DNA of 64,000 nt from a virus (IMGVR_UViG_3300037603_000132:708-64707); one strand, 5' to 3'. Shown: positions 688-57,915, numbered from the stretch's first letter. Notes: generated by a model from the letters alone, not told the origin. A program made the numbers and translations.

Positions 688-927
688 ATGTCACCCCATG
701 ACCCCCAAAGCCCAGCCGGAGAGAGCCGCCCGGCTCGTCGGCTGCTCAAGATGGGCGAGGTCGAACATCGCGTGGGCCTCGATAAGCGCACGATCCACCG
801 GAAGGTGAAGGCCGAATCGTTCCCCAAGCCGGTCCCGCTGGGCGACCGCCGGATAGGCTTCTTGGAGCATGAGATCGAGGCGTGGATCGACGCGCGGATT
901 TCCGAGCGCGACGGGGGCGCTGCATGA
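688..927 (+). CDS. AlpA-family excisionase / transcriptional regulator
   Basis: LLKMGEVEHRVGLDKRTIHRKVKAESFPKPVPLGDRRIGFLEHEIEAWI matches the AlpA pattern; adjacent to the integrase. Confidence 0.88.
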   Translation: MSPHDPQSPAGESRPARRLLKMGEVEHRVGLDKRTIHRKVKAESFPKPVPLGDRRIGFLEHEIEAWIDARISERDGGAA

Positions 928-1757
928 GCGACGAATTTGACGATCTGCTCGGGCCTGCCCCGGTCGATTTCACCGAAGAGGAATACCAGAAGGCCGTCCA
1001 GGTCGTTCGCTCGAACCGGCGCGCGGCCACGTCCTTCGTGCAGCGCAAGCTGGGGATCGGCTACAACCGCGCCCACCAGATGATCGAGCGCATGGAGGCC
1101 GAGGGCGTCGTCGGCAAGCCGGACAATCGCGGCAAGCGCGAGATTCTGGGCGACGACGGGGAACCGCCCGCCGCGTCCTTCGCCAAGCCCGGCAAGCCCT
1201 CGCACGGCACCGACGCGGCAGTCGTCCAGGCGCTCCTGCGGCCCGTCTCGATCTCCTTCTTGGCCGACGTGCTGATGAAGGATCGCAAGAGCGTCACCAA
1301 GCGCCTCGCCAACCTGACCCCGATGGGCTACCACCGGGGCAACATCCCCCTCTACGACTTCCGGCAGGCGATGGGGTACCTCGTCACGCCGAAGATGGAT
1401 GCCGCCGAGGCGATCCGAAAGATGGGCGCGGACGATCTCCCGATTGGCCTCCAGAAGGATGTCTGGGACGCCCGGCTCAAGCAACAGAAGTGGATGGAGC
1501 AGGCGGGCGAACTCTGGCGGACGGAGGCCGTGCTGGAGGTCCTGGGTGAGGCGTTCCAGCGCCTCAAGACGACAACCCAGCTTTGGATCGACCAACTGTC
1601 GGAGTCCCACGCGCTGCCCGCCGATGTCCGCAAGGACCTGACCGCGATGGTTGACGGGTTGCAGCAGGACCTCCACGCCACCCTGGTCGAGATGCCGAAG
1701 GAGCGGGCGACGACGAACCAGCTTGCGGAGATCGAGGGGACGGACCTCGATGTTTAA
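924..1757 (+). CDS. Terminase small subunit (DUF1441/Nu1-like) with an N-terminal FtsK gamma domain
   Basis: N-terminus YQKAVQVVRSNRRAATSFVQRKLGIGYNRAHQMIERMEAEGVVG is FtsK-gamma-like; C-terminal GELWRTEAVLEVLGEAF segment is DUF1441-like; directly upstream of TerL. Start taken at ATG 924, overlapping the alpA stop. Confidence 0.8.
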   Translation: MSDEFDDLLGPAPVDFTEEEYQKAVQVVRSNRRAATSFVQRKLGIGYNRAHQMIERMEAEGVVGKPDNRGKREILGDDGEPPAASFAKPGKPSHGTDAAVVQALLRPVSISFLADVLMKDRKSVTKRLANLTPMGYHRGNIPLYDFRQAMGYLVTPKMDAAEAIRKMGADDLPIGLQKDVWDARLKQQKWMEQAGELWRTEAVLEVLGEAFQRLKTTTQLWIDQLSESHALPADVRKDLTAMVDGLQQDLHATLVEMPKERATTNQLAEIEGTDLDV

Positions 1758-1866
1758 GCGCCTCGTCTGCCAAGTGTTCCACTCCCGATACGCGATGTTC
1801 ATGGGGCTGTCCTCAGCGACCAAGGCCCCGATGTACCGCTGCCGAAAGTGCCGGAGGCGGTTCTGA
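1750..1866 (+). CDS. Small Cys/His-containing hypothetical protein (38 aa)
   Basis: MFKRLVCQVFHSRY...YRCRKCRRRF; overlaps the terS stop and the terL start. Confidence 0.45.
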   Translation: MFKRLVCQVFHSRYAMFMGLSSATKAPMYRCRKCRRRF

Positions 1867-3947
1867 TGGGGAAGTTCACGACCCTGGAGGAGATGATCCT
1901 GGCGACCGCCGAGGCCGTGCGCCCGCCGGAGCGCCTGACCGTGGCCCAGGCCGCCGAGAAGTACCGCTTCATCAACAACCCCGGCAGCTACGTCGGGAGG
2001 TACAAGAACAGCACCACGCCCTACCTCGTGGAGCCGATGGAGATGCTGACCTCCCTCGACTTCACGCAGATGGTGTTCGTCGGCCCCGCACAGTGCGGCA
2101 AGTCGGATATGTCGCTCAACTGGACGACCTACAGCACGATCTGCGACCCGGCGGACATGATGCACATCGACAAGAGCCAAGCGTCCGCGCGCGACTGGTA
2201 TCAGCGCCGGATCGAGAAGCTGTTCCGCGACAACCCGGAGGTGCGGAACCGGCTGCTGCCGGGTAAGCACAACCAAAGCACCTACTCCAGCCGCTTCACC
2301 TCCGGGATGCTCTACACCCTGTCTTGGCCGACCGTGAACGAACTGAGCGGTAAGCCCCTCGGGCGGCTCTGGCTCGCGGACTACGACCGGATGGACGAGG
2401 ACGTGGGCGGCGAAGGTTCGCCCTTCGACCTGGCCGTGCAGCGCATGAAAACCTTCGGGCGCTTCGGCATGTGCGCGGCGGAGTCCTCGCCCTCCAGGAT
2501 CACCGAGAACAGCCGGTGGATGCCCAAGACGCCGCACGAGGCCCCGCCCACGACCGGAATCCTCGCTCTCTACAACCGGGGCGACCGGCGGCGCTGGTAC
2601 TGGCCCTGCCTCGCCTGCGGGACCCCGTTCGAGCCGTGCTTTACCCTGTTCGAGTGGCCGGACTGCGAGGACATGCTGGAGGCTGCCGAGCAGGTCGTGA
2701 TGCCGTGCCCCCATTGCGGCCACAAGTACCGGGACGCGGCCCACGAGGAGAGCGGGACGCCCGGCAAGCGCGGCATGAACCAGCGCGGCTTCTGGCTGCG
2801 CGACGGCGAGAAGTTCGACCCCGAGACCGGCGAGATCACCGGGACCCCGATCAGGTCGCGGATGGCGTCGTTCTGGTTGAAGGGTCCGGCGGCAGCCTTC
2901 GCGGACTGGACGGACATGACGCTCAAGTACATCAAAGCGGTGGCGGAGTTCGAGGCGACCGGATCGGAAGAGGCCCTGAAAACGACGGTCAACACCGACC
3001 AGGGCCTCCCCTATCTCCCGGCGGGGCTGGAATCCGAGCGGCTGCCGGAGGAGTTGAAGGCGCGGGCACAGGGCAGCCTGGGCGAGCGCGTGGTCCCGGC
3101 GGACGTGCGGTTCCTGATCGCCACGGTGGACACGCAGAAGAGCCGGTTCGAGGTCCAAATCCACGGCGTCCGGCCCCACGGCGACATCGTTGTGATCGAC
3201 CGCTTCAAGATCAGGAAGTCCGAGCGGCTGGACGAGGACGGCGACCCGCTGCCGCTCAACCCCGGCTCCTACGTCGAGGACTGGCACCTCCTCGTGGATC
3301 GGGTGCTGATGGCCGAGTACCTGCTGGACGACGACTCCGGGCGGCACATGCAGATCAGGATGCTCGCGGTCGACTCCGGCGGCGCGGTCGGCGTGACCTC
3401 GAACGCCTACGACTTCTGGCTCTCCCTGCGCGCGGACGGACGGAACCTCCACCGCCGGGTGCTGCTGCTGAAAGGTGACGGGCGGCCCACGGCCCCGCTC
3501 GTGCAGATCGGCTACCCGAACGCGGAGCGGAAAGACCGGCGCGCCTCGGCCCGGGGCGAGGTCCCCGTGATGATGATTAACACCAACGCCGCGAAGGACA
3601 TGGTGAACAACATGCTGGGCCGGACGGACCCGGGTGGCGGCATGGTGTTCTTCCCCGAGTGGCTGCCGGACTGGTGGTACAGCGAACTCTGCGCCGAGAC
3701 CAAGACGGCGAAGGGCTGGGTGAACCCCGGCAAGCAGCGCAACGAGGCGTGGGACCTCATGGTCTACTGCATGGCCCTGTGCCACTCCAGCCGAATCAGG
3801 CTCCAGCACATCGACTGGTCGAACCCGCCCGGCTGGGCGCAGGAGTGGGACCAGAACGACCTTGTGTTCGCGGGTCCAAACAAAGGGTTTGATATTCACC
3901 CGAAAAGTGAATATGATCTATCGAAACTGGCCGAGCAGCTAGGCTAA
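1866..3947 (+). CDS. Terminase large subunit, lambda gpA family
   Basis: Walker A GPAQCGKS, LADYDRM Walker B, CPHCG zinc motif, ATVDTQ nuclease motif, RNEAWDLMVY. Confidence 0.95.
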   Translation: MGKFTTLEEMILATAEAVRPPERLTVAQAAEKYRFINNPGSYVGRYKNSTTPYLVEPMEMLTSLDFTQMVFVGPAQCGKSDMSLNWTTYSTICDPADMMHIDKSQASARDWYQRRIEKLFRDNPEVRNRLLPGKHNQSTYSSRFTSGMLYTLSWPTVNELSGKPLGRLWLADYDRMDEDVGGEGSPFDLAVQRMKTFGRFGMCAAESSPSRITENSRWMPKTPHEAPPTTGILALYNRGDRRRWYWPCLACGTPFEPCFTLFEWPDCEDMLEAAEQVVMPCPHCGHKYRDAAHEESGTPGKRGMNQRGFWLRDGEKFDPETGEITGTPIRSRMASFWLKGPAAAFADWTDMTLKYIKAVAEFEATGSEEALKTTVNTDQGLPYLPAGLESERLPEELKARAQGSLGERVVPADVRFLIATVDTQKSRFEVQIHGVRPHGDIVVIDRFKIRKSERLDEDGDPLPLNPGSYVEDWHLLVDRVLMAEYLLDDDSGRHMQIRMLAVDSGGAVGVTSNAYDFWLSLRADGRNLHRRVLLLKGDGRPTAPLVQIGYPNAERKDRRASARGEVPVMMINTNAAKDMVNNMLGRTDPGGGMVFFPEWLPDWWYSELCAETKTAKGWVNPGKQRNEAWDLMVYCMALCHSSRIRLQHIDWSNPPGWAQEWDQNDLVFAGPNKGFDIHPKSEYDLSKLAEQLG

Positions 3948-4169: not shown

Positions 4170-5819
4170 ATGACTATGACCGTCAAACCCGCCAATCTCT
4201 CCGTTGACGAACTGCTGGGGCCTGCCCCGGCGGAGACCGCCATGGTGGGCGGGGCCTTCGACGCGGCCAGCCGCAACGAAAAGACCCTGAGTTCCTGGCA
4301 GCCGGTCCTCAACTCCGCCGACGTGGACCTGATCCCCGCGAAGGAAAGCCTGGACGCGCGCTCGCGGGACTCCCTGCGCAATGACGCCTACGTTCGCGGC
4401 GGCGCGCAAATCCACCAGGACAGCATTGTCGGCGGCCTCTACGCGCTCAACGCCAAGCCGCTCGTCAAGCTGCTCGGCCCCGGGTTCGATGAAACCTGGG
4501 CGGAGGAGTTCCAGGAAGAGGCCGAGGATCGGTTCACGCTCTACGCGGAAAGCCCGGACTGCTGGCTCGACGCTGGCCGCACCAAGACGCTGACCGAGAT
4601 GGTCCGCCTCGCCGTTGGCGTCCACGTCGCGGCGGGCGAGGTGCTGGCCTCCGCCGAGTGGATGCGCGGCGGCTTCGGGCGGCCCTTCAACACGGCGCTC
4701 CAGTTCATCGACACCGACCGTCTGTCCAACCCGCCCGAGAAGGCGATGGACCCCAACGTGATCGCGGGGGTCGAGAAGGACAAGTACGGCGCGCCCCTCC
4801 GCTACTACGTCCGGGTCGAGCATCCTTCCGACTTCCACAAGCCGGACAACTACCGCTGGCGCACCGTGGCGGCCCGCAAGCCGTGGGGTCGTCCGATGAT
4901 GATCCACCTGTTCGAGCAGATGCGGCCCGACCAGACGCGCGGCGTGGCCGAGATGGTCACGGCCCTCAAAGAGATGCGGATCACCAAGCAGTTCCGCGAC
5001 GTGACGCTCCAGAACGCCGTGGTCAACGCGACCTACGCGGCCTCCATCGAGTCCGACCTGCCGAGCGCCGAGGTGTTCGCGCAGCTTGGCGGATCGGACA
5101 ACATCCCGGAGGCGATGCAGCAGTACATCGCGGGATACCTCGGTCAGATCAGCCAGTATTCCGGCGGCGCGCGGAACCTGCAACTCAACGGCGTGAAGAT
5201 TCCGCACCTCTACCCGGGGACCAAGCTGAACCTGCACCCGGCAGGCAAGGGCGGCCCGCTCGGCCAGGAGTTCGAGCAGAGCCTTCTCCGCTACATCGCG
5301 GCCTCCCTCGGCGTCTCCTACGAGCAGCTTTCGCGCGACTATTCGCAGACCAACTACTCCAGCGCCCGGGCGGCCATGGCCGAGACCTGGAAGCGGATGA
5401 ACGTGGTCAAGCGCCAGGTCGCGGATCGCTTCGCCACCATCGCCTACCGGCTGTGGCTGGAGGAGGCGATCAACAAGGGTGCGATCTCGGCTCTGCCCCG
5501 CGCGGCCCGGCAACGCGGCTGGCTCTACCAGAACCAGCGCCTCGACGCGATCTCCCAATGCGACTGGATCGGCGCATCGAAGGGCCAGATTGACGAACTC
5601 AAAGAGACCCAGGCGGCAGTCCTGCGGCTCCGCTACAACCTCACGACCGAGGAGAGCGAGATCGCCCGCCTCGGCTCCGACTGGCGCGCGGTGAAGCGCC
5701 AGCGCCGCCGGGAGAAACTGATGGACGCAGAACTCGGCCTGGAAGTCGCGGAGGACACCTCCACGCCCGGCGCGGTCGAGCGGGGCGCACAGAAAGAGAG
5801 CGGAGATTCCAATGAATGA
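4170..5819 (+). CDS. Portal protein, lambda gpB family
   Basis: RSRDSLRND, RPDQTRGV, GVSYEQLSRDYSQTNYSSARA motifs. Confidence 0.95.
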   Translation: MTMTVKPANLSVDELLGPAPAETAMVGGAFDAASRNEKTLSSWQPVLNSADVDLIPAKESLDARSRDSLRNDAYVRGGAQIHQDSIVGGLYALNAKPLVKLLGPGFDETWAEEFQEEAEDRFTLYAESPDCWLDAGRTKTLTEMVRLAVGVHVAAGEVLASAEWMRGGFGRPFNTALQFIDTDRLSNPPEKAMDPNVIAGVEKDKYGAPLRYYVRVEHPSDFHKPDNYRWRTVAARKPWGRPMMIHLFEQMRPDQTRGVAEMVTALKEMRITKQFRDVTLQNAVVNATYAASIESDLPSAEVFAQLGGSDNIPEAMQQYIAGYLGQISQYSGGARNLQLNGVKIPHLYPGTKLNLHPAGKGGPLGQEFEQSLLRYIAASLGVSYEQLSRDYSQTNYSSARAAMAETWKRMNVVKRQVADRFATIAYRLWLEEAINKGAISALPRAARQRGWLYQNQRLDAISQCDWIGASKGQIDELKETQAAVLRLRYNLTTEESEIARLGSDWRAVKRQRRREKLMDAELGLEVAEDTSTPGAVERGAQKESGDSNE

Positions 5820-7086
5820 GTTTGCGATGGAGGGCGACCTGCTGATCGCCCCCGAGGCCCACGCCTGGGTCGAGAACCTGCTGACCAAGCTGGGGTCGCC
5901 TGAGTTTGTCCAGGAGTTCACCCAAAAGGTGAAAGCCATGGAGGACGCGGACGGCGAAGATGATTTCTGGGAGCCGGGATTCAGCCTGCGCCCCTACAAC
6001 GTCAAGAACGGCGTCCTGACGATCCCCGTGAAGGGGATGCTGATGGCCGGGCTGACCTACGCCCTCGGCAACTTCGCGACCGGCTACACCTACATCGCCC
6101 GGGCCGTGCTGCGCGGCGTGGACGACTCCGCCGTCAAGGAGATCGTGCTGGAGGTCAACTCGCCCGGCGGCACGGTCCCCGGCCTGTTCGACGCGGTGGA
6201 CACGATCTACGCGGCGCGCGGCAAGAAGCCGATCCGGGCCGTTGCCAACGAAGCGGCCTACTCGGCAGCCTACGCAATCGCCAGCGCGGCGGACGACATC
6301 ACCGTGGCCCGCACGGGCGGCGTCGGCTCGATTGGCGTGATGACCCGGCATGTCGATATGTCGAAGGCGCTGGAGCAGCGCGGCGTGAAGGTCACGGCGA
6401 TCTTCGCGGGCGCTCGCAAGAACGACGGTGCGCCAGACGCGCCGCTGTCGGACGCGGCCAAGGCGCGGATGCAGTCCCGCGTGGACGCTCTGCACGGTAT
6501 TTTCGTCGCCACTGTGGCGCGGAATCGGGACCTGGACGAGCAGGCGGTACGCGATACCGAAGCTGCGACCTTCATGGCCCAAGAAGCCGTCGAGAACGGG
6601 CTGGCCGATGCGGTCGGTCCCCTCGACTCCCTGTCGGCCAATGCCGATCCCTCCGATGAAAATGAGGACGAAGAAATGTCGAACAAGAACGACAACCCGG
6701 CGGTCGATCAGGCCGCACACGATGCTGCTGTCGCCAAGGCCAAGACCGAAGGCGAGAAGGCAGGCGCGTCCGCCGAGCGCGAGCGCGTCAAGGCGATCAT
6801 GGATTCCGAAGAGGCAAAGGCCCGCCCCGCAGCGGCCCGCCACATCGCCATGAACAGCGATATGTCCGTCGAGGACGCTACCGCCTTCCTCAAGGGCCTG
6901 CCCGAGGAAGCCAAGGCCCCCGAGGCCGATGAAGAGGCCAACGGCGGCGACGGCGGCAAGCAGTTCGAGAACGCCATGAACGACACCCAGAACCCGGAAC
7001 TCGGCGCGGGCAACGGCGGCGGCAACGACCAGGACGACGACGATGCGTTCATGGCCTCGTACCGCTCGATGCGCGGCCTGGGCTAA
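5812..7086 (+). CDS. S49 prohead protease with scaffold tail (gpC/Nu3-like)
   Basis: VNSPGG, AYSAAYAIAS, GGVGSIGV motifs; acidic/Ala-rich C-terminal scaffold region. Confidence 0.93.
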   Translation: MNEFAMEGDLLIAPEAHAWVENLLTKLGSPEFVQEFTQKVKAMEDADGEDDFWEPGFSLRPYNVKNGVLTIPVKGMLMAGLTYALGNFATGYTYIARAVLRGVDDSAVKEIVLEVNSPGGTVPGLFDAVDTIYAARGKKPIRAVANEAAYSAAYAIASAADDITVARTGGVGSIGVMTRHVDMSKALEQRGVKVTAIFAGARKNDGAPDAPLSDAAKARMQSRVDALHGIFVATVARNRDLDEQAVRDTEAATFMAQEAVENGLADAVGPLDSLSANADPSDENEDEEMSNKNDNPAVDQAAHDAAVAKAKTEGEKAGASAERERVKAIMDSEEAKARPAAARHIAMNSDMSVEDATAFLKGLPEEAKAPEADEEANGGDGGKQFENAMNDTQNPELGAGNGGGNDQDDDDAFMASYRSMRGLG

Positions 7087-7629: not shown

Positions 7630-8703
7630 ATGACCCTCGACATTTACACCCCGCGCCGCCTGGCGCTGATCCAGCAGGAAGAGAGCCAGACGGTTCGCGC
7701 TTCCCAATGGCTGAATATGTTCTACCCGAACACGTTCAACTCGGACCAGGAACAGATCATGTTCGACAAGATCGACGCCTCGCGCGAGATCGCCCCGTTC
7801 ATGCTTCCGAACCTGCCCGGTAAGCCGATCTACCGCCGCGACGGCGAGCGGATCGAGATGTTCACCCCCGCCTACACCAAGCCCAAGGACTCTGTGGAGC
7901 CGGGCATGGGCATGAAGCGTACCGGGGCCGAACTGGTGGGCCGCACCCCCCAGATGTCGCCCCAAGCGCGGATCGCGGCAGCCGTGGGCGACATCACCCG
8001 CAAGCACATCGACGGCATCGTTCGTCTGTGGGAGTACATGGGCGCGCGCTCCGTCATCGACGGCACGTTCACCGTCCGCTACACCGACAACCCCGCGCAT
8101 GACGTGACTCTGGACTTCGGGCGCGACCCCGGCCACACCATCGTCAAAGGCGCTGGTACGAAGTGGGGCGATGCGGGCGTCAGCGCGTGGGACGACGTGC
8201 AGGAGTGGGTGGACACCGTGTCCGCCGCCGACTACGGCGCGACCCCGACGGACATCTTCATGGGTGCGACCGCCTGGAAGGCGTTCATCGCTGACGCCGA
8301 TGTCCAGAAGCGCCTGGACCGCGACGTGAAGGGCGTTGAGCAGACCATGCTCGACCAGAACCTTATCGTGAAGGACAAGATGCGCCCCTGGACGCTGATG
8401 GGCATGTTCGGCACGATCCGCGTCTGGCTGGTCTCCGGCATCGGCAACACCTTCCAGTCCGGCGGCAACCGCGTGGACATCCTCAAGTCGAACGAGGTGT
8501 TCATCGCCTCTGCGGCTGTGGACGGTGTGCGCGCCTTCGGTGCGATCCGCGACCTGGACTCCCTTGAGGCCGTCGAGATTTTCCCCTCGACCTGGACCGA
8601 GAAGGACCCGAGCCGCCGGTTCCTGATGCACCAGAGCGCGCCTCTGATGATCCCGGTCAACCTCAACGCGACCCTGCGCGCGACTCCGGTCGATCTCCCC
8701 TAA
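7630..8703 (+). CDS. Major capsid protein (gpE family)
   Basis: 357 aa; APFMLP, FTPAYTKPK, HQSAPLMIP motifs. Confidence 0.93.
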   Translation: MTLDIYTPRRLALIQQEESQTVRASQWLNMFYPNTFNSDQEQIMFDKIDASREIAPFMLPNLPGKPIYRRDGERIEMFTPAYTKPKDSVEPGMGMKRTGAELVGRTPQMSPQARIAAAVGDITRKHIDGIVRLWEYMGARSVIDGTFTVRYTDNPAHDVTLDFGRDPGHTIVKGAGTKWGDAGVSAWDDVQEWVDTVSAADYGATPTDIFMGATAWKAFIADADVQKRLDRDVKGVEQTMLDQNLIVKDKMRPWTLMGMFGTIRVWLVSGIGNTFQSGGNRVDILKSNEVFIASAAVDGVRAFGAIRDLDSLEAVEIFPSTWTEKDPSRRFLMHQSAPLMIPVNLNATLRATPVDLP

Positions 8704-8722
8704 GTCGCACTAGCGACCTGAC

Positions 8723-8750
8723 CGCCCCGGCACATCGCCGGGGCGCTTCA
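8723..8750 (+). terminator. Hairpin after the capsid gene (possible terminator)
   Basis: cgccccggc-acatc-gccggggcg stem-loop; weak U tail. Confidence 0.4.
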
Positions 8751-8784
8751 CCATCCCCCGAAACCCATAGCGAGGAGCCGAGAA

Positions 8785-9141
8785 ATGAAGGTTCAAGCAC
8801 GTCACGCCATTATCCGCAAGGAAGGCAAGAAAACGGTCTCCCACCGGCCCAACGACAAGACGAAGGGCATTTTCGAGTGCCCCGACGACGAGGCACAGGG
8901 CTACATCGACATCGGCGCAGCCGTGAAGGTCGAAGAGGCCGAGGCCGCGCCTGCCAAGCCCAAGGCCAAGGGCAAGACTGCCGCCGAGAAGAAGGCGGAG
9001 AAGGAAGCCGCTGACAAGGCTGCCGCCGAGAAGAAGGCCGCCGCCGAGAAGGAAGCCGCTGACAAGGCCGCAGCCGAGAAGGCCGCAGCCGAGAGCGGCA
9101 GCGGTGAGGGCGAAGGCGACGACGAGGAGTTGCTGGGCTAA
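8785..9141 (+). CDS. Ala/Lys/Glu-rich protein at the gpFI position
   Basis: AAEKKA repeats; ends DDEELLG; RBS upstream. Confidence 0.75.
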   Translation: MKVQARHAIIRKEGKKTVSHRPNDKTKGIFECPDDEAQGYIDIGAAVKVEEAEAAPAKPKAKGKTAAEKKAEKEAADKAAAEKKAAAEKEAADKAAAEKAAAESGSGEGEGDDEELLG

Positions 9142-9518
9142 TGTCGATCCGGGACCTCAAGAACCGCTCGCGGCGGACGCTGCACGACGCCTTGGCGGTC
9201 CCGGCGATCTACGTGGACCGGGACACGCGGGCGGAGACGCCTTGCACCGTCCGGGTCCACCATCGCCACGACAAGTTCGGGGACATGACCGGATTCGACT
9301 ACGCCCCGGCGGAGCGGATCACGACGGTCCCCGAACTTATCATCCTCAAGGACGACCTCGCGCCTACCCGGGCCGGGGTGTTCTCCATCGCTTCGGATGA
9401 AGCCTACAAGGTCGAGACCGTTATGCCGCCGGACGGCATTACCGTCACGATCCAGACGACGCGCATGTCGCAGGCCGAGATCGACGCGGAAAGCCTGCCG
9501 GTGCCGGGGGCTGCCTGA
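9141..9518 (+). CDS. Head-tail joining protein (gpFII-like)
   Basis: Synteny and size; coupled start/stop. Confidence 0.7.
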   Translation: MSIRDLKNRSRRTLHDALAVPAIYVDRDTRAETPCTVRVHHRHDKFGDMTGFDYAPAERITTVPELIILKDDLAPTRAGVFSIASDEAYKVETVMPPDGITVTIQTTRMSQAEIDAESLPVPGAA

Positions 9519-10141
9519 TGCTGGACCCCGTGTTCTCGCGATCTGGCTTGGGCTACGTCGTCGCCGTCGAGGGCCTGCGCGAACTCGCCGCTGACTTCGA
9601 CAACGTGTCCGACAAGATCAAGGCCCGGGCGGCCATGGCGATCAACTCCACGGCCCGCAAGTTCCGCACCGAGTCCAGCCGGGAGATGCGCAAGCAGGTC
9701 GCCTTCCCGGCGCGCTACCTGGACAGCCGCCAGGATGGCCGCCTCCGCGTCCGCCGCCAGGCCGCCGCGACCCGGCTGGAGGCCGCCATTGAGGGCCGGT
9801 TCGAGCCGACCAGCCTGACCCGGTTCGTCGTTGGCGCGGTGAGCCACGGGCGCAAGAACCCCAAGCTGCGCGTCTCGCCCGGGAGCCAGAGCCTCATCCC
9901 GAACTCGTTCATTATGAACCTCGCGAATCAGAACAAGGGCCTCGCGATTCGCTTGAAGCCCGGCGAGACGATCCGCAACAAGCGCAAGATGGTCTCCTTC
10001 TCCAAGAAGGACGCCAACCTCTATCTCCTCTATGGCCCCTCCGTCGATCAGGTTTTCCGCGATGTCGCGGTCGATGTATCGCCAGACGCGGCGGAGTATC
10101 TGGAGGCCGAGTTCCTACGACTGACGGAGCGACTGCTATGA
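9518..10141 (+). CDS. Minor tail / neck protein (gpZ-like)
   Basis: Basic 207 aa protein; LYGPSVDQVF motif; synteny. Confidence 0.7.
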   Translation: MLDPVFSRSGLGYVVAVEGLRELAADFDNVSDKIKARAAMAINSTARKFRTESSREMRKQVAFPARYLDSRQDGRLRVRRQAAATRLEAAIEGRFEPTSLTRFVVGAVSHGRKNPKLRVSPGSQSLIPNSFIMNLANQNKGLAIRLKPGETIRNKRKMVSFSKKDANLYLLYGPSVDQVFRDVAVDVSPDAAEYLEAEFLRLTERLL

Positions 10142-10632
10142 TCGACACCTTCCGCCTTCGGGTCATCAAGGCCCTCTGCGCCCACATCGAGACCATCTCG
10201 GTCGCGGGCGGCTACCAGCACGATCTCGCCGGAAAAGTGGTCCGGGGCCGGATCACGCTGACCGAGGAGGACGGCGCGCCGCCCATCATCGCGGTCAACG
10301 AAAAGCCGGTTTTCCCTGAAAACTTGCAGGGCCACGGCAGCGGTGCGAGCGGGACCAAGCTGGAACTGCTGATCCAGGGCTTCGCCGCCGACGACCGGAA
10401 GAACCCCACGGACCCGGCCTACCCGCTGCTGGGCGACGTGCAGAAATGTCTCGCGCTGGAGAAGCTGCGGGATGATGGATACGACCTCTTTGGCTTCAAA
10501 TCGCGCGTCATGTCGCTCGATGTGGGGCAGGGGGTCGTTCGCCCGCCGGACGGCGTTGTGGCTGACACCGCGTTCTTCTGGCTCCCCGTAACGCTGGAGA
10601 TCGGAGAGAAGTTCAACGATCCGATTGCGTGA
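10138..10632 (+). CDS. Tail terminator-like protein
   Basis: Synteny before the tail tube gene; coupled start. Confidence 0.65.
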   Translation: MIDTFRLRVIKALCAHIETISVAGGYQHDLAGKVVRGRITLTEEDGAPPIIAVNEKPVFPENLQGHGSGASGTKLELLIQGFAADDRKNPTDPAYPLLGDVQKCLALEKLRDDGYDLFGFKSRVMSLDVGQGVVRPPDGVVADTAFFWLPVTLEIGEKFNDPIA

Positions 10633-10639
10633 AAAGAAA

Positions 10640-10656
10640 ATCACCTGTAAGGTGAT
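10640..10656. promoter_or_regulatory. Operator upstream of the tail tube gene
   Basis: atcacc-tgtaa-ggtgat. Confidence 0.65.
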
Positions 10657-10716
10657 CTTTAACCCCAAGAGGAGTTTGCCCGCGAGGTCAAATTCACCCA
10701 AAAGTGGAGACTTACA

Positions 10717-29417: not shown

Positions 29418-29535
29418 CTGTGAAACTTTCCCCCGCTCCGCTTCGTTGGCTCTACCCGTTAATTTCACCTTCTGGATTCAAATTCAACCAAAAATTCCTA
29501 CAACCTCGGATTATTTTCGATTGACTTGAATCGGA

Positions 29536-30807: not shown

Positions 30808-30864
30808 GTATGCGCTCCTCGCAGAACGCTCCTCACGGCAATCATACACCAAAAGGTGAATAGT

Positions 30865-31104: not shown

Positions 31105-31136
31105 GGTCAATCTCCCAATTCTCGATCTGTTCGCGG

Positions 31137-31529: not shown

Positions 31530-31569
31530 GGCTCGTTGAAGAGGACCACGCGGCCCTTGAATACGATGG

Positions 31570-50117: not shown

Positions 50118-52901
50118 TCAGCCCAGCAGATCGTCAATCTCGGCGGCCTCGTCGGCCTCGTTTTCCGCCGGAGCCTCGATCCAACGCGGCCCATCGCTGT
50201 TGCGGAAGAACCACACGGCGTTCTGCCCGTGGCGGCGCTTCTTCGGCATTTCCGTCCAGCCCGCGATCAGCTTGAGAGCCTTTCCGTAGGTCCGGGCGTC
50301 CGCGTTGCGATAGGGCTGGAGGATGGGGTCCAGACGCACGGCCTCATAGGCTTCGCGAGCCGTCACCATGTTCCGGTACACCAGGCGCTCGTCGTCGTCG
50401 TCCGCCGCGAAGCCGTCCGCGTCCACGATCACGTCGGTGGCCTTGTAGGGCGTGTCCAGCCACTCCTGGATCACCTCTGCGATGGTCTCGGTCGCCGTGT
50501 GGCGGCGGTTGCGCTCTGCGATCTGGCGCTGCTCGATGATCGCCTCGCGATCCTTGAGGCCGAGGTGCAGCGGCTTGGTTCCGGCGGCCTCGCGGGCGTC
50601 CAGGTAGGCTTGATACGCCTCGCCCCAGATCATCGCCCGGTTCGAGATCAGGAGGTCCTGGTCGATCTGGTCATACTCGTCGCCTTTGGCCTCCCAGACC
50701 CAGAAGCGGCGGACGGAGGTGGGATCGCTCAGAAAGTCGTCGTCGTTCGAGGTGGCCGCCATGACGGACTGGCGCGGGAAAGACATCTCCCGCCGCCCGT
50801 AGGCCAGGCGGATCGTGTCCTGCTGGGCGGAGAGGAAGTCCTTGACGACGTTGTTGTCGCCCCGGGCCTTCGACATCTCCGCGACCTCCATGAGCCAGTT
50901 GCCCCGCATCTGTTCGACGGCGCGGTCGATCTTCTCCATGTCCACGCGGAACTCGGAGAAGAACGCATCGGTCACGAGGTTGCGCAGGAAGGTCGATTTA
51001 CCGGCCCCTGTGAGGCCGCGCACGATCAACATCTGGTCGAATTTGCAGCCCGGCTCGTAGATGCGCGCCACCATGCCCATGAGGAAGAGCCGCGAGGACT
51101 CCCGGTGAAAGATCGTGTCGAGGCAGCCGAGGTAGGTCTGCGGCAGGCTGTTGATGTAGCCCGTCGGGGAGCCTGCGGCTTTCCACTCCTCCCAATGCCC
51201 CTCGATCATGTCCTTGACCGGGTGGATGGTGTTCTGCCGCCCAGCGGCCAGCACGGCGTCCTGGACGTTCTGGGTGGAGAAGTCGGTCTCGAACCCGGCC
51301 CGCCCCATGTTCGCGGAGCAGATCAGCTTGATCGACGTGTCGTCCGCGTCGGTCCAGCGCCGCCCGATCTTCTGCTCGATCTTGTTGAGCGGCGGCGAGG
51401 GCAGCTTGATCTTGGAGGACCTGATCTGCTTGAGGCAAACCGGGTCCATGGTGAACTCGTTGTAGCCGATTGCGTCACGCAACCGGGAATCGTTCTCGCA
51501 GATCAGGGTGACGTTGTTCAGGACCGGCTCCAGGTCGCCGTTGGCCTTCTTGCGAAGGTGGATCGACCAGCCCGTGCCCTTCTCCTTTTTCTTCTTCTTC
51601 TTGGGCTTCTCCTCCTCGTCCTCGTCGTCATCATCGAACTCGTCAGCGATGTCGCGCGGCCCGTCGCTCGCGCCGTCGTCATCGCCCGGCGCGGGGCCGA
51701 GGAGGTCGTCCAGATCGGAGTCCGCGGACTCGGATTTCCGGGGCTTGTCGCCCGGCCCATCGTCGTCGGGATCGTCGTCGTCCTCGTCCTCGTCGTCATC
51801 GAACTCGTCGCGCAGGTAGGAGAACAACTCGGCGGCAACCGCCTGATCCTCGTTCGCGAACTTGCTCATGGCCTTGAAGGACGGCAGGTTGGCGGGTGAG
51901 GTGTTGGCGGGGGACTTCTCGTCCAGGTGGCCGAACTTGTGGAGCCGCACGAGGTCGAAGGCGTTATGCAGGCCCTCCGCCGGGTCGGTCCCGTGGTTGG
52001 AGTGGAGGAACAGCCCGTCGTCATAGACCACGGCCCCGTTCGACCCCGAGCCTCCGGTGTAGGTGTAACGCGTCTCCGTTGCGCTCGTGCCCGGCGCGTA
52101 GATGTCGTCCAGGAACTCCGCAATCGCCTCCTCGACATCGTAGGCGCGGCAGAAGGCCCCGATCACCCCCGGCTTCTCGTGGGGATGCTCCATCTTGCGG
52201 TTGGGATCGACAACCCCGCGCTCGCGCTCGTCCTCCTGGTAAGGCAGGTAGGTGTAGTCCTCCCAGCCGTCATGCTGGGCCAGGTACTCGTCCACGTCGA
52301 GGATCGCGCCGCCCGGGTTGTCCTCCATCCAGTATTCCTGGCCCTTGGAGATCGAGGGCTTGAACATGACTTGGTTGAAGCGGAAGGAGACGAGATCGGG
52401 AATCTCGATAGCCTCGTCGGGATCGTCGGCCAGTTCGAGGGCCACCAGGCGGGTCAGCGCGTGGGTCTCGGTCGCGTCCATCGGTCGGCTGACCGGGATG
52501 ATGATGCGGACGCGCGGCTTCTCCGGGCAATGCGCCCGGGTCGTGTGCATGATCCAGTACCATTGGCTGATCTCGGCCAGCCCGAGGCGGATATGGTCAA
52601 GCTGGTCGATGGACACATAGTCCAGATCGAACGCGAGCATCGTCCGGTACTTCTGGTGGTCCAGCTTGCGCTTCCCGTCGCGGAAGTGCGCGGCCATCCA
52701 GTAGCCCGGGTATCGCTTCTTCTCCAGCTTGGCGTCCTGGTCCAGCGCCATGTACTGCGCGAAGGTGACGGACGTATCCACCATCGGCTCGGCCAGCAGG
52801 CGCTTGAAGCGCGCAAGGGTGGATTCCCGGTTCTTCACGCGCCCGAGGCCGGAGCCGGTGTTCACGCAATACTTGACCAGGTGGTTTTCGATGTCGCTCA
52901 T
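50118..52901 (-). CDS. Primase / VapE-like helicase (virulence-associated E domain)
   Basis: AFDLD, HTTRAH...RVRIIIP primase motifs; PGCKFDQMLIVRGLTGAGKST; RRFWV. Confidence 0.9.
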   Translation of the reverse strand: MSDIENHLVKYCVNTGSGLGRVKNRESTLARFKRLLAEPMVDTSVTFAQYMALDQDAKLEKKRYPGYWMAAHFRDGKRKLDHQKYRTMLAFDLDYVSIDQLDHIRLGLAEISQWYWIMHTTRAHCPEKPRVRIIIPVSRPMDATETHALTRLVALELADDPDEAIEIPDLVSFRFNQVMFKPSISKGQEYWMEDNPGGAILDVDEYLAQHDGWEDYTYLPYQEDERERGVVDPNRKMEHPHEKPGVIGAFCRAYDVEEAIAEFLDDIYAPGTSATETRYTYTGGSGSNGAVVYDDGLFLHSNHGTDPAEGLHNAFDLVRLHKFGHLDEKSPANTSPANLPSFKAMSKFANEDQAVAAELFSYLRDEFDDDEDEDDDDPDDDGPGDKPRKSESADSDLDDLLGPAPGDDDGASDGPRDIADEFDDDDEDEEEKPKKKKKKEKGTGWSIHLRKKANGDLEPVLNNVTLICENDSRLRDAIGYNEFTMDPVCLKQIRSSKIKLPSPPLNKIEQKIGRRWTDADDTSIKLICSANMGRAGFETDFSTQNVQDAVLAAGRQNTIHPVKDMIEGHWEEWKAAGSPTGYINSLPQTYLGCLDTIFHRESSRLFLMGMVARIYEPGCKFDQMLIVRGLTGAGKSTFLRNLVTDAFFSEFRVDMEKIDRAVEQMRGNWLMEVAEMSKARGDNNVVKDFLSAQQDTIRLAYGRREMSFPRQSVMAATSNDDDFLSDPTSVRRFWVWEAKGDEYDQIDQDLLISNRAMIWGEAYQAYLDAREAAGTKPLHLGLKDREAIIEQRQIAERNRRHTATETIAEVIQEWLDTPYKATDVIVDADGFAADDDDERLVYRNMVTAREAYEAVRLDPILQPYRNADARTYGKALKLIAGWTEMPKKRRHGQNAVWFFRNSDGPRWIEAPAENEADEAAEIDDLLG

Positions 52902-52947: not shown

Positions 52948-53298
52948 TTAGCCCAGCAGATCGTCCAGGTTCTCCTCCGGCGTCTCGGCCTCTTCGGGGG
53001 CCGCGTAGAGCGCGTAGTCGGGCAGGATGAACTCCACGAGATCGCACCAGTAGATCGGCTTTGCGCCTTTGGTCTCGCGGGAGGCCAGGATGATTCGACG
53101 CGCGACCCGAGTGCCGAGCGGTCCCTGCTCGCGGAGGGCCTTGTAGACGGTCTCGTTTGCGAAGCCGATGATCTTGGCGAACGCCTGCACGTCAAAGGCA
53201 TTACGGTCGGTTTTCAGGTGGGGGAACCGGGCAAAAAGCAGATCGTAGAGATCACCGAAAGCGTGGTCCCGGCGGGGCGTGGCGTTGGGTCGGAACAT
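52948..53298 (-). CDS. Cro-like HTH protein
   Basis: DVQAFAKIIGFANETVYKAL; divergent from the replication operon. Confidence 0.65.
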   Translation of the reverse strand: MFRPNATPRRDHAFGDLYDLLFARFPHLKTDRNAFDVQAFAKIIGFANETVYKALREQGPLGTRVARRIILASRETKGAKPIYWCDLVEFILPDYALYAAPEEAETPEENLDDLLG

Positions 53299-53463: not shown

Positions 53464-54048
53464 ATGAGCCTTGAAGAAGCACTGCGCGAGAACACCGCCG
53501 CGCTGAAAGAGAACACCGCCGCCCACGCCAAGCTGGCCGAAGTGGCTATGGCCGCAGCAGGCGGCAAGCCCGCCGCCGAGACCAAGACCACCAAAGCGAC
53601 CGAGAACAAGGCCGCCGAGGAGTCCTCCGACGACGAAGAAAAGACCGAGACCGCCGCCGAGAAGAAGAAGCGCCTGGCCGCCGAGAAGAAGGCCGCCGCC
53701 GAGAAGAAGGCAGCAGCCGAGAAGAAGGCCGCCGACAAGAAGAAGGCCGCCGACAAGCCTGATCCGGTCGCTGAGATCGACGCCGCCGGGCTGCACAAGA
53801 TCGCTGCCGCCTTCCTCAAGGGCGACGACGAAGAGGCCCGGGACGCCAACAAGGCGAACTTCGTGGGCGCTCTGTCGCACATCGGCGCGGCCAAGCTGGG
53901 CGAGATCGAGACGGACGCAGATCGCGGTCGCCTTGCCACCTACATCGCCTACTGGACCGCCGGTCTCGATGTGGACTTTGAAGAGATCGACGCCCTCGTT
54001 GAAGCTGCCGGTTCTGGCGGCTCCGAGGACGACGACCTGCTGGGCTAA
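53464..54048 (+). CDS. Ala/Lys-rich low-complexity protein
   Basis: AAEKKAAAEKK repeats; ends DDDLLG. Confidence 0.75.
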   Translation: MSLEEALRENTAALKENTAAHAKLAEVAMAAAGGKPAAETKTTKATENKAAEESSDDEEKTETAAEKKKRLAAEKKAAAEKKAAAEKKAADKKKAADKPDPVAEIDAAGLHKIAAAFLKGDDEEARDANKANFVGALSHIGAAKLGEIETDADRGRLATYIAYWTAGLDVDFEEIDALVEAAGSGGSEDDDLLG

Positions 54049-54281: not shown

Positions 54282-55034
54282 ATGACCCGACCCGACACCA
54301 ACCCCAAATCCGTTTTCGGCGCGGCCAAGCCGGGTATCTCCGCGATCCCGCCGGTCGCGCTTCTGCATTGTGGGCGCGGCATGGAGGACGGCGAGCGCAA
54401 ATACGGCCTGACCAACTGGCGCGAGAACAGCGTGGCCGCCTCGGTCTACTACAACGCGGCCTTCCGGCACCTCGCGTCCTGGTGGGACGGCGAGCAGAAG
54501 GCGCAGGACTCCGGGGTTCACCACCTCGGGCACGTCATGGCCTGCTGCGCGATCCTGCTGGACGCCGAGGTCCAGGGGGTCCTCATTGACGACCGCCCGC
54601 CGGTCCCCGGCCAGTTCTCCCGCATGGTCGCGGAGATGACGCGGAAGATCGAGGAGGCCGCCAAAAGCGACCTTTGCGAGGACGAAGGCTGCCCCCACCA
54701 CGGGACGCCGCATATCTGCGTCAACTCCATCTTGCCGGAGGGGTTCGAGGACCGGCTGATGGCCGCCATGGGGGTCCCCGGGCGTCTGTTGGCTGCTGAC
54801 AACTCCGACGAGGCCCCCGCCGCCGTTGCCGTGGGCCGGGAGTTCAAGTCCGAGGAAGAGTTCAAGAGTTTCGTGAGGGACTTTCTGGCGTACACCATGC
54901 CGGGCTTCTCCGCGCGCCGGATGTACGTGTTCAAGTGGCTGGACGCCAACAACTACGACCGGGTGGCCGAGGTCGCCAAAGGCCAATGGCGCGAGTTGGC
55001 GAACCACCTCAACCAGTACGAGGCCGCCGACTGA
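54282..55034 (+). CDS. dATP/dGTP diphosphohydrolase-domain protein (DUF5664-like) with a C-terminal extension
   Basis: NPK...KPG...G..KYG..NWR...AAFRHL..W..GE..DSGVHHLGHVMAC. Confidence 0.85.
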   Translation: MTRPDTNPKSVFGAAKPGISAIPPVALLHCGRGMEDGERKYGLTNWRENSVAASVYYNAAFRHLASWWDGEQKAQDSGVHHLGHVMACCAILLDAEVQGVLIDDRPPVPGQFSRMVAEMTRKIEEAAKSDLCEDEGCPHHGTPHICVNSILPEGFEDRLMAAMGVPGRLLAADNSDEAPAAVAVGREFKSEEEFKSFVRDFLAYTMPGFSARRMYVFKWLDANNYDRVAEVAKGQWRELANHLNQYEAAD

Positions 55035-55035: not shown

Positions 55036-56400
55036 ATGGCCCACCGGCCCCTCACCAGCGAAGAGTGGCAGGCCGAGGTCTCCGAGTGGTTGAAGGATCA
55101 CAAGGGGGTCGAGGACAAGCCGGGCCGGGCCGCCAAGCCCGCCCACTCTTGGATGTCGCCCTCCAGCATCAGCCGGGGGATCGCGTGTCCGGGGTCCATG
55201 GCGCTCTGCGCGGAGATCAGCGAGCGGGAGGCCACGGTCTACTCCGCCGAGGGGACGGTCGCCCACTACGTCCGGGAGATGTGCCTGGAGTTCGACATGG
55301 AGCCGGACGACTTCGTGGGCATGTCGATGAAAGCCGACGGATTCTCTTTCGAGATCACCGAGGAGATGGCGGACAACCTGCGCCCGGGGATCGAGCGGAT
55401 CAGGGAGCGGCCCGGAAAGCTGTTCATCGAGTACCAGGTCAACCTCGACCGCTGGATGCCCGGGCAGTACGGCAAGCTGGACGTGGGGATCGTTTCCCCC
55501 TCGCTGATCGAGGTCAATGACCTGAAATACGGGGCCGGGATGCCGGTCTCCGCCGAGCGCAACGAGCAGCTTATGGCCTATGCGCTGGGCTTCTGGGAGA
55601 ACGTGGCCCGCCACATCTCCGAGGCTACCGAGTTCCTTCTGGTGGTGGATCAACCGCGCGCTAGAGGACGGCCAGACCAAGAAGAGGAGGACTTTGACGA
55701 TGAAGAAGATTTAGAGGCCGACGAGGCAGATCAGACTCCGGGGTGGGGAGGGGAGTGGCGCGTGTCGCTGCCGGAACTCCTCACTTTCGGGGACAAGATG
55801 AAAGACGCCTATGACGCGGCGATCTCTCCCGACGCCTGGCTGCGCGCTGGCCCCCATTGCCAGTTCTGCCCCCGCAAGGGGTCGTGCGACGAGCAGGCCC
55901 GGTACGCCCTGTCCCTGCTGCAAATCGAACTGCACGACCTGGACCCCGATGTCATCACGCTTCGGGATCACGGCGAGTTCACCGCGCAGCAGAAGGTCAA
56001 CCTGGCGCTCAACATCGACCGCGTGACCGCGTGGATGAAGGCGGTCTACGCCTCGATCCTCGGGGAAGCCCGGGCTGGCGGCCACGCCCCCGGCGCGAAA
56101 GTGGTGGAGGGCAGCCAAGGCCCGCGCAAGTGGCGCGACGAGAAAGCCGCGCTGGCCTTCATGCAAGATTATCTTCCGAAACCCGAGGACGCCTTTGCCC
56201 CGGCAAAGCCGCTGTCTCCGGCCAAGTTCGAGAAGATCAAAGGGATTCCCAAGGAGGCCAAAGCGGCGGTGAACGATCACGTCGTCAGGTCGCCCGGGAA
56301 GCCTGCCCTGGTCAGGGCAGGAGACTCAAGGAGGGCAATCGACATCGCGGACGAGTTCGATGACGACGACGAGGACGATGTTGACGATCTGCTGTCCTAA
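55036..56400 (+). CDS. DUF2800 Cas4-like PD-(D/E)xK nuclease
   Basis: SPSS...CPGS, EGTVAH, GKLDVG, VNDLKYG, HCQFCP. Confidence 0.88.
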   Translation: MAHRPLTSEEWQAEVSEWLKDHKGVEDKPGRAAKPAHSWMSPSSISRGIACPGSMALCAEISEREATVYSAEGTVAHYVREMCLEFDMEPDDFVGMSMKADGFSFEITEEMADNLRPGIERIRERPGKLFIEYQVNLDRWMPGQYGKLDVGIVSPSLIEVNDLKYGAGMPVSAERNEQLMAYALGFWENVARHISEATEFLLVVDQPRARGRPDQEEEDFDDEEDLEADEADQTPGWGGEWRVSLPELLTFGDKMKDAYDAAISPDAWLRAGPHCQFCPRKGSCDEQARYALSLLQIELHDLDPDVITLRDHGEFTAQQKVNLALNIDRVTAWMKAVYASILGEARAGGHAPGAKVVEGSQGPRKWRDEKAALAFMQDYLPKPEDAFAPAKPLSPAKFEKIKGIPKEAKAAVNDHVVRSPGKPALVRAGDSRRAIDIADEFDDDDEDDVDDLLS

Positions 56401-56402
56401 AA

Positions 56403-56455: not shown

Positions 56456-57031
56456 ATGACCAAGGACCCCCGCCGCGTTTACCTCAAGAATGTGCGGCTT
56501 TCTTACCCCCACCTCCACGAGCGCCAGAAGGCGAACGAGGATGCGGAGCCGAAGTTCTCGGCCTCCTTCCTGATCGACCCCTCCACGAAGTCGGGCAAGG
56601 AGAACATCAAGAAGATCGAGGCGGCAATCGAGGCGGCCAAAGAGGCTGCCGGATTCTCCGACAAGATCAAGTTCAAGGATGGCCGCATGTGCTTCTTCGA
56701 CGGTGAAGAGAACACCGACGACGAGGGCAACGTGAAGGACGGCTACGAGGGCATGATGGTCATCAAGGCGTCCAACAAGGACCCGGTGCGGCTGCTGACC
56801 CGGAAGAAGAAGGAGGTGGATCGAGACAACTCCCCCTTCTACGGCGGCTGCTACGTCGAGTGCATGTTGGGCCTCTTCGGGACCAAGAAGGGCGGTTCGC
56901 CTGGTATCTTCGCGAGCCTGGACGGCGTTCGCTTCTGGGAGGACGGCGAGTCCTTCGGCAAAGCCCAGATTGGCGACGACGAGTGGGACGACGACGAGGA
57001 TGACGAGGACGACGACGACCTTTTGGGCTGA
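56456..57031 (+). CDS. DUF2815 single-stranded DNA-binding protein
   Basis: NVRLSYPHL, KFSASFLI, FYGGCY, acidic tail. Confidence 0.88.
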   Translation: MTKDPRRVYLKNVRLSYPHLHERQKANEDAEPKFSASFLIDPSTKSGKENIKKIEAAIEAAKEAAGFSDKIKFKDGRMCFFDGEENTDDEGNVKDGYEGMMVIKASNKDPVRLLTRKKKEVDRDNSPFYGGCYVECMLGLFGTKKGGSPGIFASLDGVRFWEDGESFGKAQIGDDEWDDDEDDEDDDDLLG

Positions 57032-57038
57032 CTCGACC

Positions 57039-57055
57039 TTCACCCAAAAGGTGAA
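57039..57055. promoter_or_regulatory. Operator upstream of the MTase/polymerase genes
   Basis: ttcacc-caaaa-ggtgaa. Confidence 0.7.
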
Positions 57056-57111
57056 AACTACCGGCTCCCGCGCAGGCGGGGGCCGGACCCCTCAGTCCCC
57101 CGGAGATTGTC

Positions 57112-57915
57112 GTGAGCCTGTCGCCTTCCAGCATCAAAATCCTTGTCGGCTACGAGTGCAGCGGAGCCGTTCGCCGGGCGTTGCGCGCGCACGGGTTCGA
57201 CGCTTGGTCGTGCGACATTCAAGCGGCCCGGGACGGATCGCCCTATCACCTGACGGGGGACATCTGGGATTTTGTCGGCCCCGAGCATGGCTGGCACTTT
57301 GCGATCTTCCACCCGCCTTGCACCTACCTGACCAATAGCGCCTCGTGGGCCTTCCACGACCCGGACTACGAGAAATACCCGGGCGTCGGCTACCACCAGC
57401 GCGTCAAGCCCGAGACCCTGACCGGGGCCGCCCGCCGCGCCGCGCGTGACGCTGCGCTGGCCGATGTCGAGCGCCTGATCGCGCTCCCGTACCCCAAGGT
57501 GATCGAGAACCCCCGGGGCTTCATCGGGACCATGCTGACCCCGGCGACCCAGACGATCCAGCCCCACGAGTACGGCAGCGATGCGAGCAAGGCGACGTGC
57601 CTCTGGTGCCGCCCCGGAGAGGACGGGCGGACGCCGCCCAAGCTGGTCCCGACCTACCACGTCAAGCCCCGGATCGTCGGCGGCAAGAAGCGTTGGGGCA
57701 ACCAAACTGATTCCGGCCAGAACCGTCTGTCGCCGGGCGAGTCCCGGGCCGACGACCGGAGCGAGACCTATCCCGGCGTGGCCTCGGCGTTGGCCGCCCA
57801 ATACGGCGGCTGGCTTCTCGGCAAGACCCTACCCGACCTGCACCTGGCGATGCTCCGCGACATCGACCTCCTGCTGGCCGACCCCGAACCGAGCATTGAG
57901 GAACTTTTGGCATGA
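57112..57915 (+). CDS. Putative DNA cytosine methyltransferase-like protein
   Basis: ILVGYECSGAVR...AWSCDI (motif I-like) and FHPPCTYL (PC motif IV). Confidence 0.7.
   Translation: MSLSPSSIKILVGYECSGAVRRALRAHGFDAWSCDIQAARDGSPYHLTGDIWDFVGPEHGWHFAIFHPPCTYLTNSASWAFHDPDYEKYPGVGYHQRVKPETLTGAARRAARDAALADVERLIALPYPKVIENPRGFIGTMLTPATQTIQPHEYGSDASKATCLWCRPGEDGRTPPKLVPTYHVKPRIVGGKKRWGNQTDSGQNRLSPGESRADDRSETYPGVASALAAQYGGWLLGKTLPDLHLAMLRDIDLLLADPEPSIEELLA

Follow-up and report, generated by a model that had tools for sequence, protein, structure and literature searches.

In a 64,000-nucleotide stretch of viral DNA (IMGVR_UViG_3300037603_000132:708-64707; hereafter "the window"), which covers nearly all of the 64.7-kb genome (65% GC) of a Chi-like marine phage or provirus, 12 proteins carry between them 14 copies of one short acidic peptide, here called the tag. 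Its pattern is an acidic run, often a hydrophobic residue, and then [DE]-[DE]-L-L-[G/S/A], as in DDLLG, and it is real, strongly non-random, and conserved. [quoted passage not shown] That several proteins may share a terminal peptide is known already from T7; what is new is the reach into packaging and modification, and we found no publication describing such a tag in Chi-like or other phages.

The closest public relatives of this genome are the Ruegeria phages DSS3-P1 and vB_RpoS-V16 (Chi-like, Casjensviridae; ~78% nucleotide identity over terminase and portal). We called 69 genes in the window via third-position GC, annotated the tag carriers and their neighbors with Pfam and PHROGs, and compared them with DSS3-P1, with further loci (labeled L, e.g., L004, L009, and L106) and with five distant relatives taken whole (G001–G005). 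Four of these five encode a large terminase (TerL) that is 54–58% identical to that of the window; TerL was not found in G005. G003 is a Pseudomonas phage relative, locus L092 lies in G002, and L107 is a prophage of Stutzerimonas stutzeri.

An earlier note on this DNA had listed 12 unrelated proteins sharing the tag, and a six-frame scan of the window (34 matches to [DE]LL[GSA]) recovers all 14 copies at the positions first listed (Table 1). Nine copies are C-terminal and five are N-terminal or internal, and most have a hydrophobic residue three positions ahead of the leucines (I/V/L/F-D-D-L-L), an acidic LxxLL-like pattern. Shuffled controls leave little room for chance: 8 of the 69 called proteins end in [DE][DE]LL[GSA], against 0.002 expected from whole-protein shuffles and 0.005 from shuffles of the last 30 residues, and no shuffle gave more than one. 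The extended form LLG[PE][AC]P occurs five times against 0.002 expected, each time as [DE]LLG[PE][AC]P (N-terminally in the small terminase TerS, the portal, and the GapR homolog, close to the C-terminal end of the N6-methylase, and within the primase linker). The 12 carriers resemble one another only in the tags and low-complexity linkers; in pairwise local comparisons, the tags account for the best matches.

The constraint acts on the peptide and not on the DNA, since the leucine codons of the tag differ among copies (CTG, CTC, CTT, and TTG). No recurrent DNA word lies beneath the tags; the only shared one is a 16-mer of the TerS and portal copies, which is within the window's chance level. 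The varied codons and this single chance-level word together rule out a DNA-level explanation. The 16 nucleotides in question (window 948-963 and 4215-4230; CTSGGGCCTGCCCCGG) are near-identical in the two tags and include the uncommon codons GGG and CCT; their likeness could be chance or gene conversion between the two tags. An artifact of composition, in which GC-driven amino-acid bias would generate the tags, is ruled out by a 42%-GC lineage that carries IDDLLS at two C-termini.

Tags are kept at orthologous sites while their flanks diverge (DSS3-P1, L004, L009, and L106), and the same sites are tagged in the distant Chi-like phages, which bears out the expectation that orthologs would retain them. 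In G001–G004, the TerS and portal N-termini, the primase linker, the exonuclease, and the SSB carry a lineage version of the tag, which at C-termini is DDLI, DDLV, or DDMI and at internal sites is D[DP]LIG. The lineage-specific version is also found on a 230–250-aa protein in distant Chi-like genomes, and in G003 and G005 the SNF2 helicase is tagged too. The internal form is nearly always followed by Gly (by Ala in two exonuclease copies), often with Pro two to four residues on; because internal copies exist and are followed by Gly, a free carboxylate is not needed.

The same concerted change of tip is seen around SSB genes more widely. We compared 80 IMG/VR loci around SSB homologs, scoring tip sharing within ±10 kb. 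The 120 SSB homologs have many tips (LLG, PMG, ILG, LLD, MLD, GLV, DLI, DMI, LAG, FLS, DDY, and host-like EIPF), and other open reading frames (ORFs) end in the SSB tip of their own locus. In L015 and L017, DDLI recurs in this way four to five times, and there are three such endings each of DLAG in L030, NLDDY in L068, and EDLI in L059. For a permutation test we took one representative per 70%-identity SSB cluster (44 lineages) and compared the last two residues where an acidic residue precedes them: 30 other ORFs share the ending of their own SSB, whereas permuting the tips yields 6.4 ± 2.9, and a count of 30 was attained in 0 of 2000 permutations. When the gene content of tail-sharing lineages was set against that of non-sharing ones, no gene proved specific to the sharers. 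Because the tip changes in concert across lineages, a docking function is favored over chance; conservation together with this concerted change is the strongest part of the evidence.

Structural context is consistent with this. The earlier note had placed the tag at termini or in linkers of proteins for packaging, replication, DNA modification, and the nucleoid, and this is upheld. Each tag is surrounded by sequence rich in D, E, G, P, S, and A; in TerS, the N6-methylase, and the GapR homolog, it is not part of the Pfam domain. AlphaFold2 models give a predicted local distance difference test score (pLDDT) of ~50 for the SSB tail (residues 164–191) and <50 for the primase linker (residues 362–443) and C-terminus (residues 912–927). 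Lying outside domains, in low-confidence polar segments, the tags are therefore add-ons on flexible tethers.

Table 1. Tag copies in the window and their versions in orthologs, with the family B polymerase of related genomes. Coordinates are those of the window unless a genome or locus is named; C-terminal tags are written up to the stop.
Carrier	Gene	Tag	Tag coordinates, strand	Place in protein	Orthologs
Small terminase TerS	924-1757	DEFDDLLGPAP	930-962, +	Residues 3-13, directly before FtsK-gamma winged helix	DSS3-P1 IDDLLGGAP; L004/L009 FEDLLGPAP; G001 DDDDLIG; G002 FDDLIG; G004 DDDDLIG
Portal	Probable start 4167, ORF to 5819	VDELLGPAP	4203-4229, +	N-terminal	DSS3-P1 LDLLG; G003 LEDLIG; G002 YDPLIG; G004 LDPLIG; G001 YDPIIG
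118-aa protein	8785-9141	DDEELLG	9118-9138, +	C-terminal	DSS3-P1 gp55 (counterpart) EDLLG
N6/N4 DNA methylase	28509-29468	LADLLGPCP, then DDIEALLA	28512-28562, - (LADLLGPCP core 28548-28559, -)	C-terminal region	DSS3-P1 ends DIAALLA; G005 LADLLAGPP
116-aa protein	31570-31920	LEDLLS	31573-31584, -	C-terminal	DSS3-P1 gp30 (counterpart) VDDLLS
GapR homolog	32787-33083	SEDLLGEAP	Core 33057-33068, -	N-terminal, residues 4-12; GapR DNA-binding domain follows at residues 27-97	DSS3-P1 LDDLFG
VapE-type primase-helicase	50118-52901	LDDLLGPAP	Core 51696-51707, -	Internal (residue 399), disordered linker	DSS3-P1 SIDDLLGGG, twice; G001/G002/G004 DDLIG
VapE-type primase-helicase	50118-52901	EIDDLLG	50121-50132, -	C-terminal	L009 IDDLLG; L004 LDDLLS; L106 VDDLLG; DSS3-P1 IEDLLG
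116-aa protein	52948-53298	NLDDLLG	52951-52962, -	C-terminal	L004 VDDLLG; L009 IDDLLG; DSS3-P1 gp80 SDLLA
194-aa protein	53464-54048	DDDLLG	54034-54045, +	C-terminal	DDDPLG, DDDILG, DDMLG, DDDMLD
DUF2800 PD-(D/E)XK exonuclease	55036-56400	VDDLLS	56386-56397, +	C-terminal, ADEFDDDDEDD ahead of tag	DSS3-P1 VDDLLG; G001 LDDLI; G002/G004 FDDLI
Enc34/T7-gp2.5-type SSB	56456-57031	DDDDLLG	57017-57028, +	C-terminal tip	DSS3-P1 DDDLLG
Putative DNA methyltransferase (PHROG 757)	57112-57915	IEELLA	57901-57912, +	C-terminal	
Family B polymerase, 666 aa	L092:1688-3688 (G002); G004 29604-31604; L107:10633-12633				

The N-terminal placements in TerS and the portal rest on gene starts that overlap the upstream gene by ATGA, at 924 for TerS (tag at residues 3–10) and at 4167 for the portal (tag at residues 13–18). 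A second, acidic-aromatic element, ADEFDDD(D/E) or DEWDDD, occurs alongside the tag in the primase linker (twice, residues 365–440, on both sides of the linker tag), the exonuclease tail, the SSB tail, and TerS. The gene of the 118-aa carrier lies between the major capsid and head-tail attachment genes, which is the FI position of lambda, and its product, which has an AEK-rich spacer, may be a packaging accessory factor. The last carrier of the window had been called "C5-MTase-like"; the methyltransferase part of that assignment is upheld by PHROG 757 ("DNA methyltransferase") only, there being no Pfam match. A Protein Atlas search with the 194-aa carrier returned nothing usable.

We searched three bacterial genomes (12.2 Mb in total, two of them carrying related prophage-like elements) with a DNA pattern for [DE][DE][L/F][L/F][G/A] followed by a stop. 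The same pattern that has six matches in the 64 kb of the phage has none in a 2.9-Mb Rhodobacteraceae metagenome-assembled genome (MAG), one in S. stutzeri (in ribosomal protein L4), and five in a 4.7-Mb Shimia MAG, where three lie on a phage-like contig (C39 of G006) and the others are a 27-codon frame and an unlikely ORF. Outside that contig there are three matches in 12.2 Mb, none of them tag-like (two are not credible gene ends and one is L4), and this near-absence rules out a habit of the host proteome; the tag is not equally common at host termini. Nor does the phage repeat the host SSB tip: the SSBs of the Shimia MAG and S. stutzeri end DLDDEIPF and FDDDIPF, respectively, the same canonical D[DE]IPF tip, against DDLLG for the phage tag. 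Because these host tips are canonical while the phage elements resident in the two bacteria carry different tips, the tag is no copy of the host SSB tail.

The earlier note had drawn an analogy with the bacterial DDDIPF tail, and the likeness to an SSB proves closer than proposed, as the T7-gp2.5-type SSB encoded by the phage itself (PF10991, E = 4e-30) has the tag as its tip. As in the T7 replisome, this SSB belongs to the gp2.5/Enc34 structural type with a disordered acidic tail and a hydrophobic tip, and the helicase-primase copies the SSB tail (here EIDDLLG vs. DDDDLLG on the SSB, kept in relatives). The Enc34 SSB has a T7 gp2.5-like fold and a disordered acidic tail that, in the crystal, lies within a neighbor's DNA-binding sheet (PMC5686142). 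In T7, the gp2.5-type tail competes with single-stranded DNA (ssDNA) and anchors on a partner, specifically on the front basic patch of the polymerase; PDB 6P7E shows gp5 with a DTDF peptide on it that mimics the similar tail of the gp4 helicase-primase (PMC12339929). Yet the system described here differs from T7 in its tip, which is L-L-[G/S/A] (I, V, AG, or Y in other lineages) without a terminal Phe, the only aromatic residue of the tagged tails lying upstream, in DEF/DEW-DDD; in its carriers, which number at least 12 rather than 2 and include terminase, portal, methylases, and a nucleoid protein; in its placement, with copies also at N-termini and in a linker; and in that the polymerase is an improbable universal reader.

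Other systems resemble this one in part. In T4 and RB69, the C-termini of gp43, gp33, and gp55 bind the clamp gp45, so that functionally different proteins use one short C-terminal peptide to reach one hub on DNA, and the shared peptide couples replication to another late process; unlike T4, no clamp family is detectable here, and the motif differs (SLDFLFG in T4). The bacterial SSB likewise offers an acidic tail with a hydrophobic tip as a recruitment handle on a disordered linker, but its topology is inverted—one tag with many readers there, many proteins with one tag here—and its tip is not that of the phage, though some related phage lineages have host-like DVPF on the primase or EIPF on the SSB. 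Finally, papillomavirus E6 binds an acidic LxxLL peptide from MAML1 (...SDLDDLLGS; PMC5760104) whose L-D-D-L-L-G core is identical and illustrates that such a sequence can fold into a short amphipathic helix seated in a basic-rimmed hydrophobic pocket; this eukaryotic case has no evolutionary or functional link to the phage and is an analogy of shape only, and some of the phage tags are without the first hydrophobic residue.

In the docking mechanism that we favor, the archetype of the tag would be the C-terminal tip of the SSB, and copies of it would have been appended on disordered tethers (C-termini, N-termini, and one interdomain linker) to at least 11 other DNA-handling proteins: the primase-helicase, DUF2800 exonuclease, two methylases, GapR homolog, small terminase, portal, FI-position head protein, and three small proteins. 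Any reader of the SSB tail would also read the copies, so that the tagged proteins would be drawn to one site or set of sites on the replicating and the packaged DNA, or vie for it. Binding, as well as the number and identity of readers, is what we infer here from the observed pattern of tags. A narrower version, which we put forward tentatively and with considerable doubt, is that one reader, whether from the host or encoded by the phage (polymerase excepted), binds a single evolving docking code on all these carriers. Were this so—and we regard it with the same reserve—Chi-like phages would have a physical link between genome replication, modification, and packaging, and tag and pocket would co-evolve between lineages. 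The single-hub reading is plausible but unproven.

Several observations weigh against docking as we describe it. Tips can be mixed within a genome, as where the L009 SSB ends DDPMG beside IDDLLG on other proteins, or where G001 and G003 have internal DDLLG beside terminal DDLI. The exonucleases of L004 and L009 end in the acidic-aromatic element (DEFDDD) without an LL tip, no tag was found on TerS or portal of L012, and much of the contrast between LL and LI could reflect one ancestral switch between two clades. AlphaFold2 monomers show no docking of the tag onto its own SSB or primase, the tags being of low confidence in these models. Several SSB lineages, such as the DFLS group, show no tip sharing within ±10 kb, so the habit is widespread but not family-wide. 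In the DFLS lineages, the primase (L079:5763-8048 and L067:6239-8503) instead reproduces the tip of the bacterial SSB, with WDDEDVPF or WEDDDVPF as its ending, and the phage SSB ends DDFLS.

As to what might read a docking tag, a phage-encoded protein other than the DNA polymerase is probable. PolA is encoded in the window, DSS3-P1, G001, and G003, whereas G002, G004, and L107 encode a family B polymerase (Table 1) that matches Sulfolobus Pol B1 and E. coli Pol II, has no similarity to the window PolA, and itself ends in the tag-like KLDHLI. Despite this swap, G002, G004, and L107 keep the same DDLI-type tags as G001, which makes the polymerase unlikely as a co-evolving universal reader. A complex prediction run as one job without controls (PolA and SSB core residues 1–165, with exonuclease tail residues 415–454 as partner) gave ipSAE values of 0.23 and 0.26, both under a mark of 0.32, and counts neither for nor against binding. 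A phage sliding clamp is ruled against by the lack of any match to PF00712 or PF09116 in the 64.7-kb genome at E ≤ 0.1, although a highly diverged clamp could escape these profiles. A chemotaxis-type lead, based on the likeness of the tag to FliM EIDALL and CheZ VDDLLD and pointing to a CheY-type reader, met with no receiver domain in annotation scans of ~35 window proteins. The candidate readers are TerL, the SSB groove, the primase-helicase, and a host factor. TerL is universal in the Chi-like genomes compared save G005, and its C-terminus (window 3920-3947; orthologs in G001–G004) is conserved and amphipathic (KLAEQLG, LEELAALLA, IGALLS) and does not follow the lineage tag; by analogy with lambda gpA, this tail may be the portal-binding end.

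A host reader (e.g., a sliding clamp, chaperone, or protease adaptor), with the tip tracking host clade, is possible because tips group roughly by host clade and because LL tags occur in the otherwise distant, GapR-encoding G005. Specifically, Rhodobacteraceae-associated elements have LL or ML followed by G or D, and G003 and the Stutzerimonas prophage have L or M followed by I or V; G005 has a GapR homolog and LL[GSA] tags, its replication proteins being no nearer to those of the window than are those of the LI lineages. We nevertheless consider such a reader unlikely, given that the host SSB tip (IPF) is alike in both hosts tested, that the tag is essentially absent from host gene ends and hence has no visible set of host clients, and that the LL state common to the window and G005 is equally explicable as ancestral. 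Improbable in our judgment is nucleic-acid mimicry in cis, whereby each acidic tail would fold onto the DNA-binding surface of its own protein and gate DNA, with no common reader. Acidic C-terminal domains that autoregulate in this way have precedents in T7 gp2.5, T4 gp32, and Hfq, every carrier binds or processes DNA, and T7-type SSB tails compete with ssDNA, the Enc34 tail occupying a neighbor's beta-sheet groove in the crystal (PMC5686142). But unrelated DNA-binding surfaces would not require an identical hydrophobic tip, mimicry would not explain a concerted change of tip at six or more orthologous sites, and the AlphaFold2 models of SSB and primase, a weak argument, dock no tail in cis.

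Two further explanations were weighed. Acidic LL tags could act with lysine-rich tracts in the same linkers as multivalent stickers of a replication-packaging compartment, forming a many-to-many network or condensate; the primase linker, which has one to two LL tags, two ADEFDDD motifs, and a K-rich tract, the AEK-rich spacers of window proteins W9 and W68, and the 12–18 tags that a hexameric helicase would display all fit such a network. A defined tip that changes in concert by lineage suggests a pocket rather than bulk charge, and we hold stickers to be quite improbable. The tag might instead mark proteins for degradation or processing, as a C-terminal degron for a host AAA+ protease or as a cleavage site for the S49 head protease. 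The non-polar C-terminal tripeptides LLA, LLG, and LLS recall ClpX C-motif 1, the head module is lambda-like with an S49 protease, and the lambda portal loses its N-terminal 20 residues. However, a ClpX-type degron needs a strictly C-terminal free carboxylate, and five of the 14 copies are N-terminal or internal and run on into residues of the G-P-A-P type; host proteases are conserved, yet the tip varies from lineage to lineage; one would not expect to find replication proteins in proheads; and there is no evident benefit in marking twelve essential proteins for destruction. The shared proteolysis signal that had earlier been offered as an alternative has lost ground on account of these non-C-terminal copies and lineage-specific tips, and we now think it very improbable.

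The genes around the carriers form two recognizable modules. The lambda-like head module comprises a Nu1/DUF1441-type TerS with an FtsK-gamma domain, TerL, a gpW-like adaptor, portal, S49 protease, gpD-like decoration protein, capsid protein, the FI-position small protein, and an FII-like protein; the S49 protease begins (window 5812-5850) with MNEFAMEGDLLIAPE, a weakly tag-like N-terminus that is not conserved in G001–G004. The replication module comprises the VapE primase-helicase, DUF2800 exonuclease, Enc34/T7-gp2.5-type SSB, PolA, and SNF2 helicase. In L009, PolA (7707-10739) has 1010 aa vs. 748–786 aa in close relatives, a size that suggests a large insertion (intein or homing element). 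A MazZ-like dATP/dGTP diphosphohydrolase N-domain protein (PF18909; window 54282-55034) and an HD phosphohydrolase-like protein (27911-28477), both untagged, are together a hint of a modified base or of editing of the nucleotide pool; the window proteins that were scanned include no PurZ-like one.

For annotation, these data offer an easy guide: when a small ORF of unassigned function in these phages ends in the tip of the SSB, its product probably takes part in DNA transactions. Should the tag be a docking code, there ought to be a missing hub protein, recoverable with a seven-residue peptide, and the tag's lineage versions (LLG, LI, EV, LAG, and DDY) would be natural orthogonal tag–reader pairs for tethering proteins in bacteria. 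Such a code would also provide a handle on how a siphophage with neither nucleus nor clamp co-locates the replication, modification, and packaging of its DNA.

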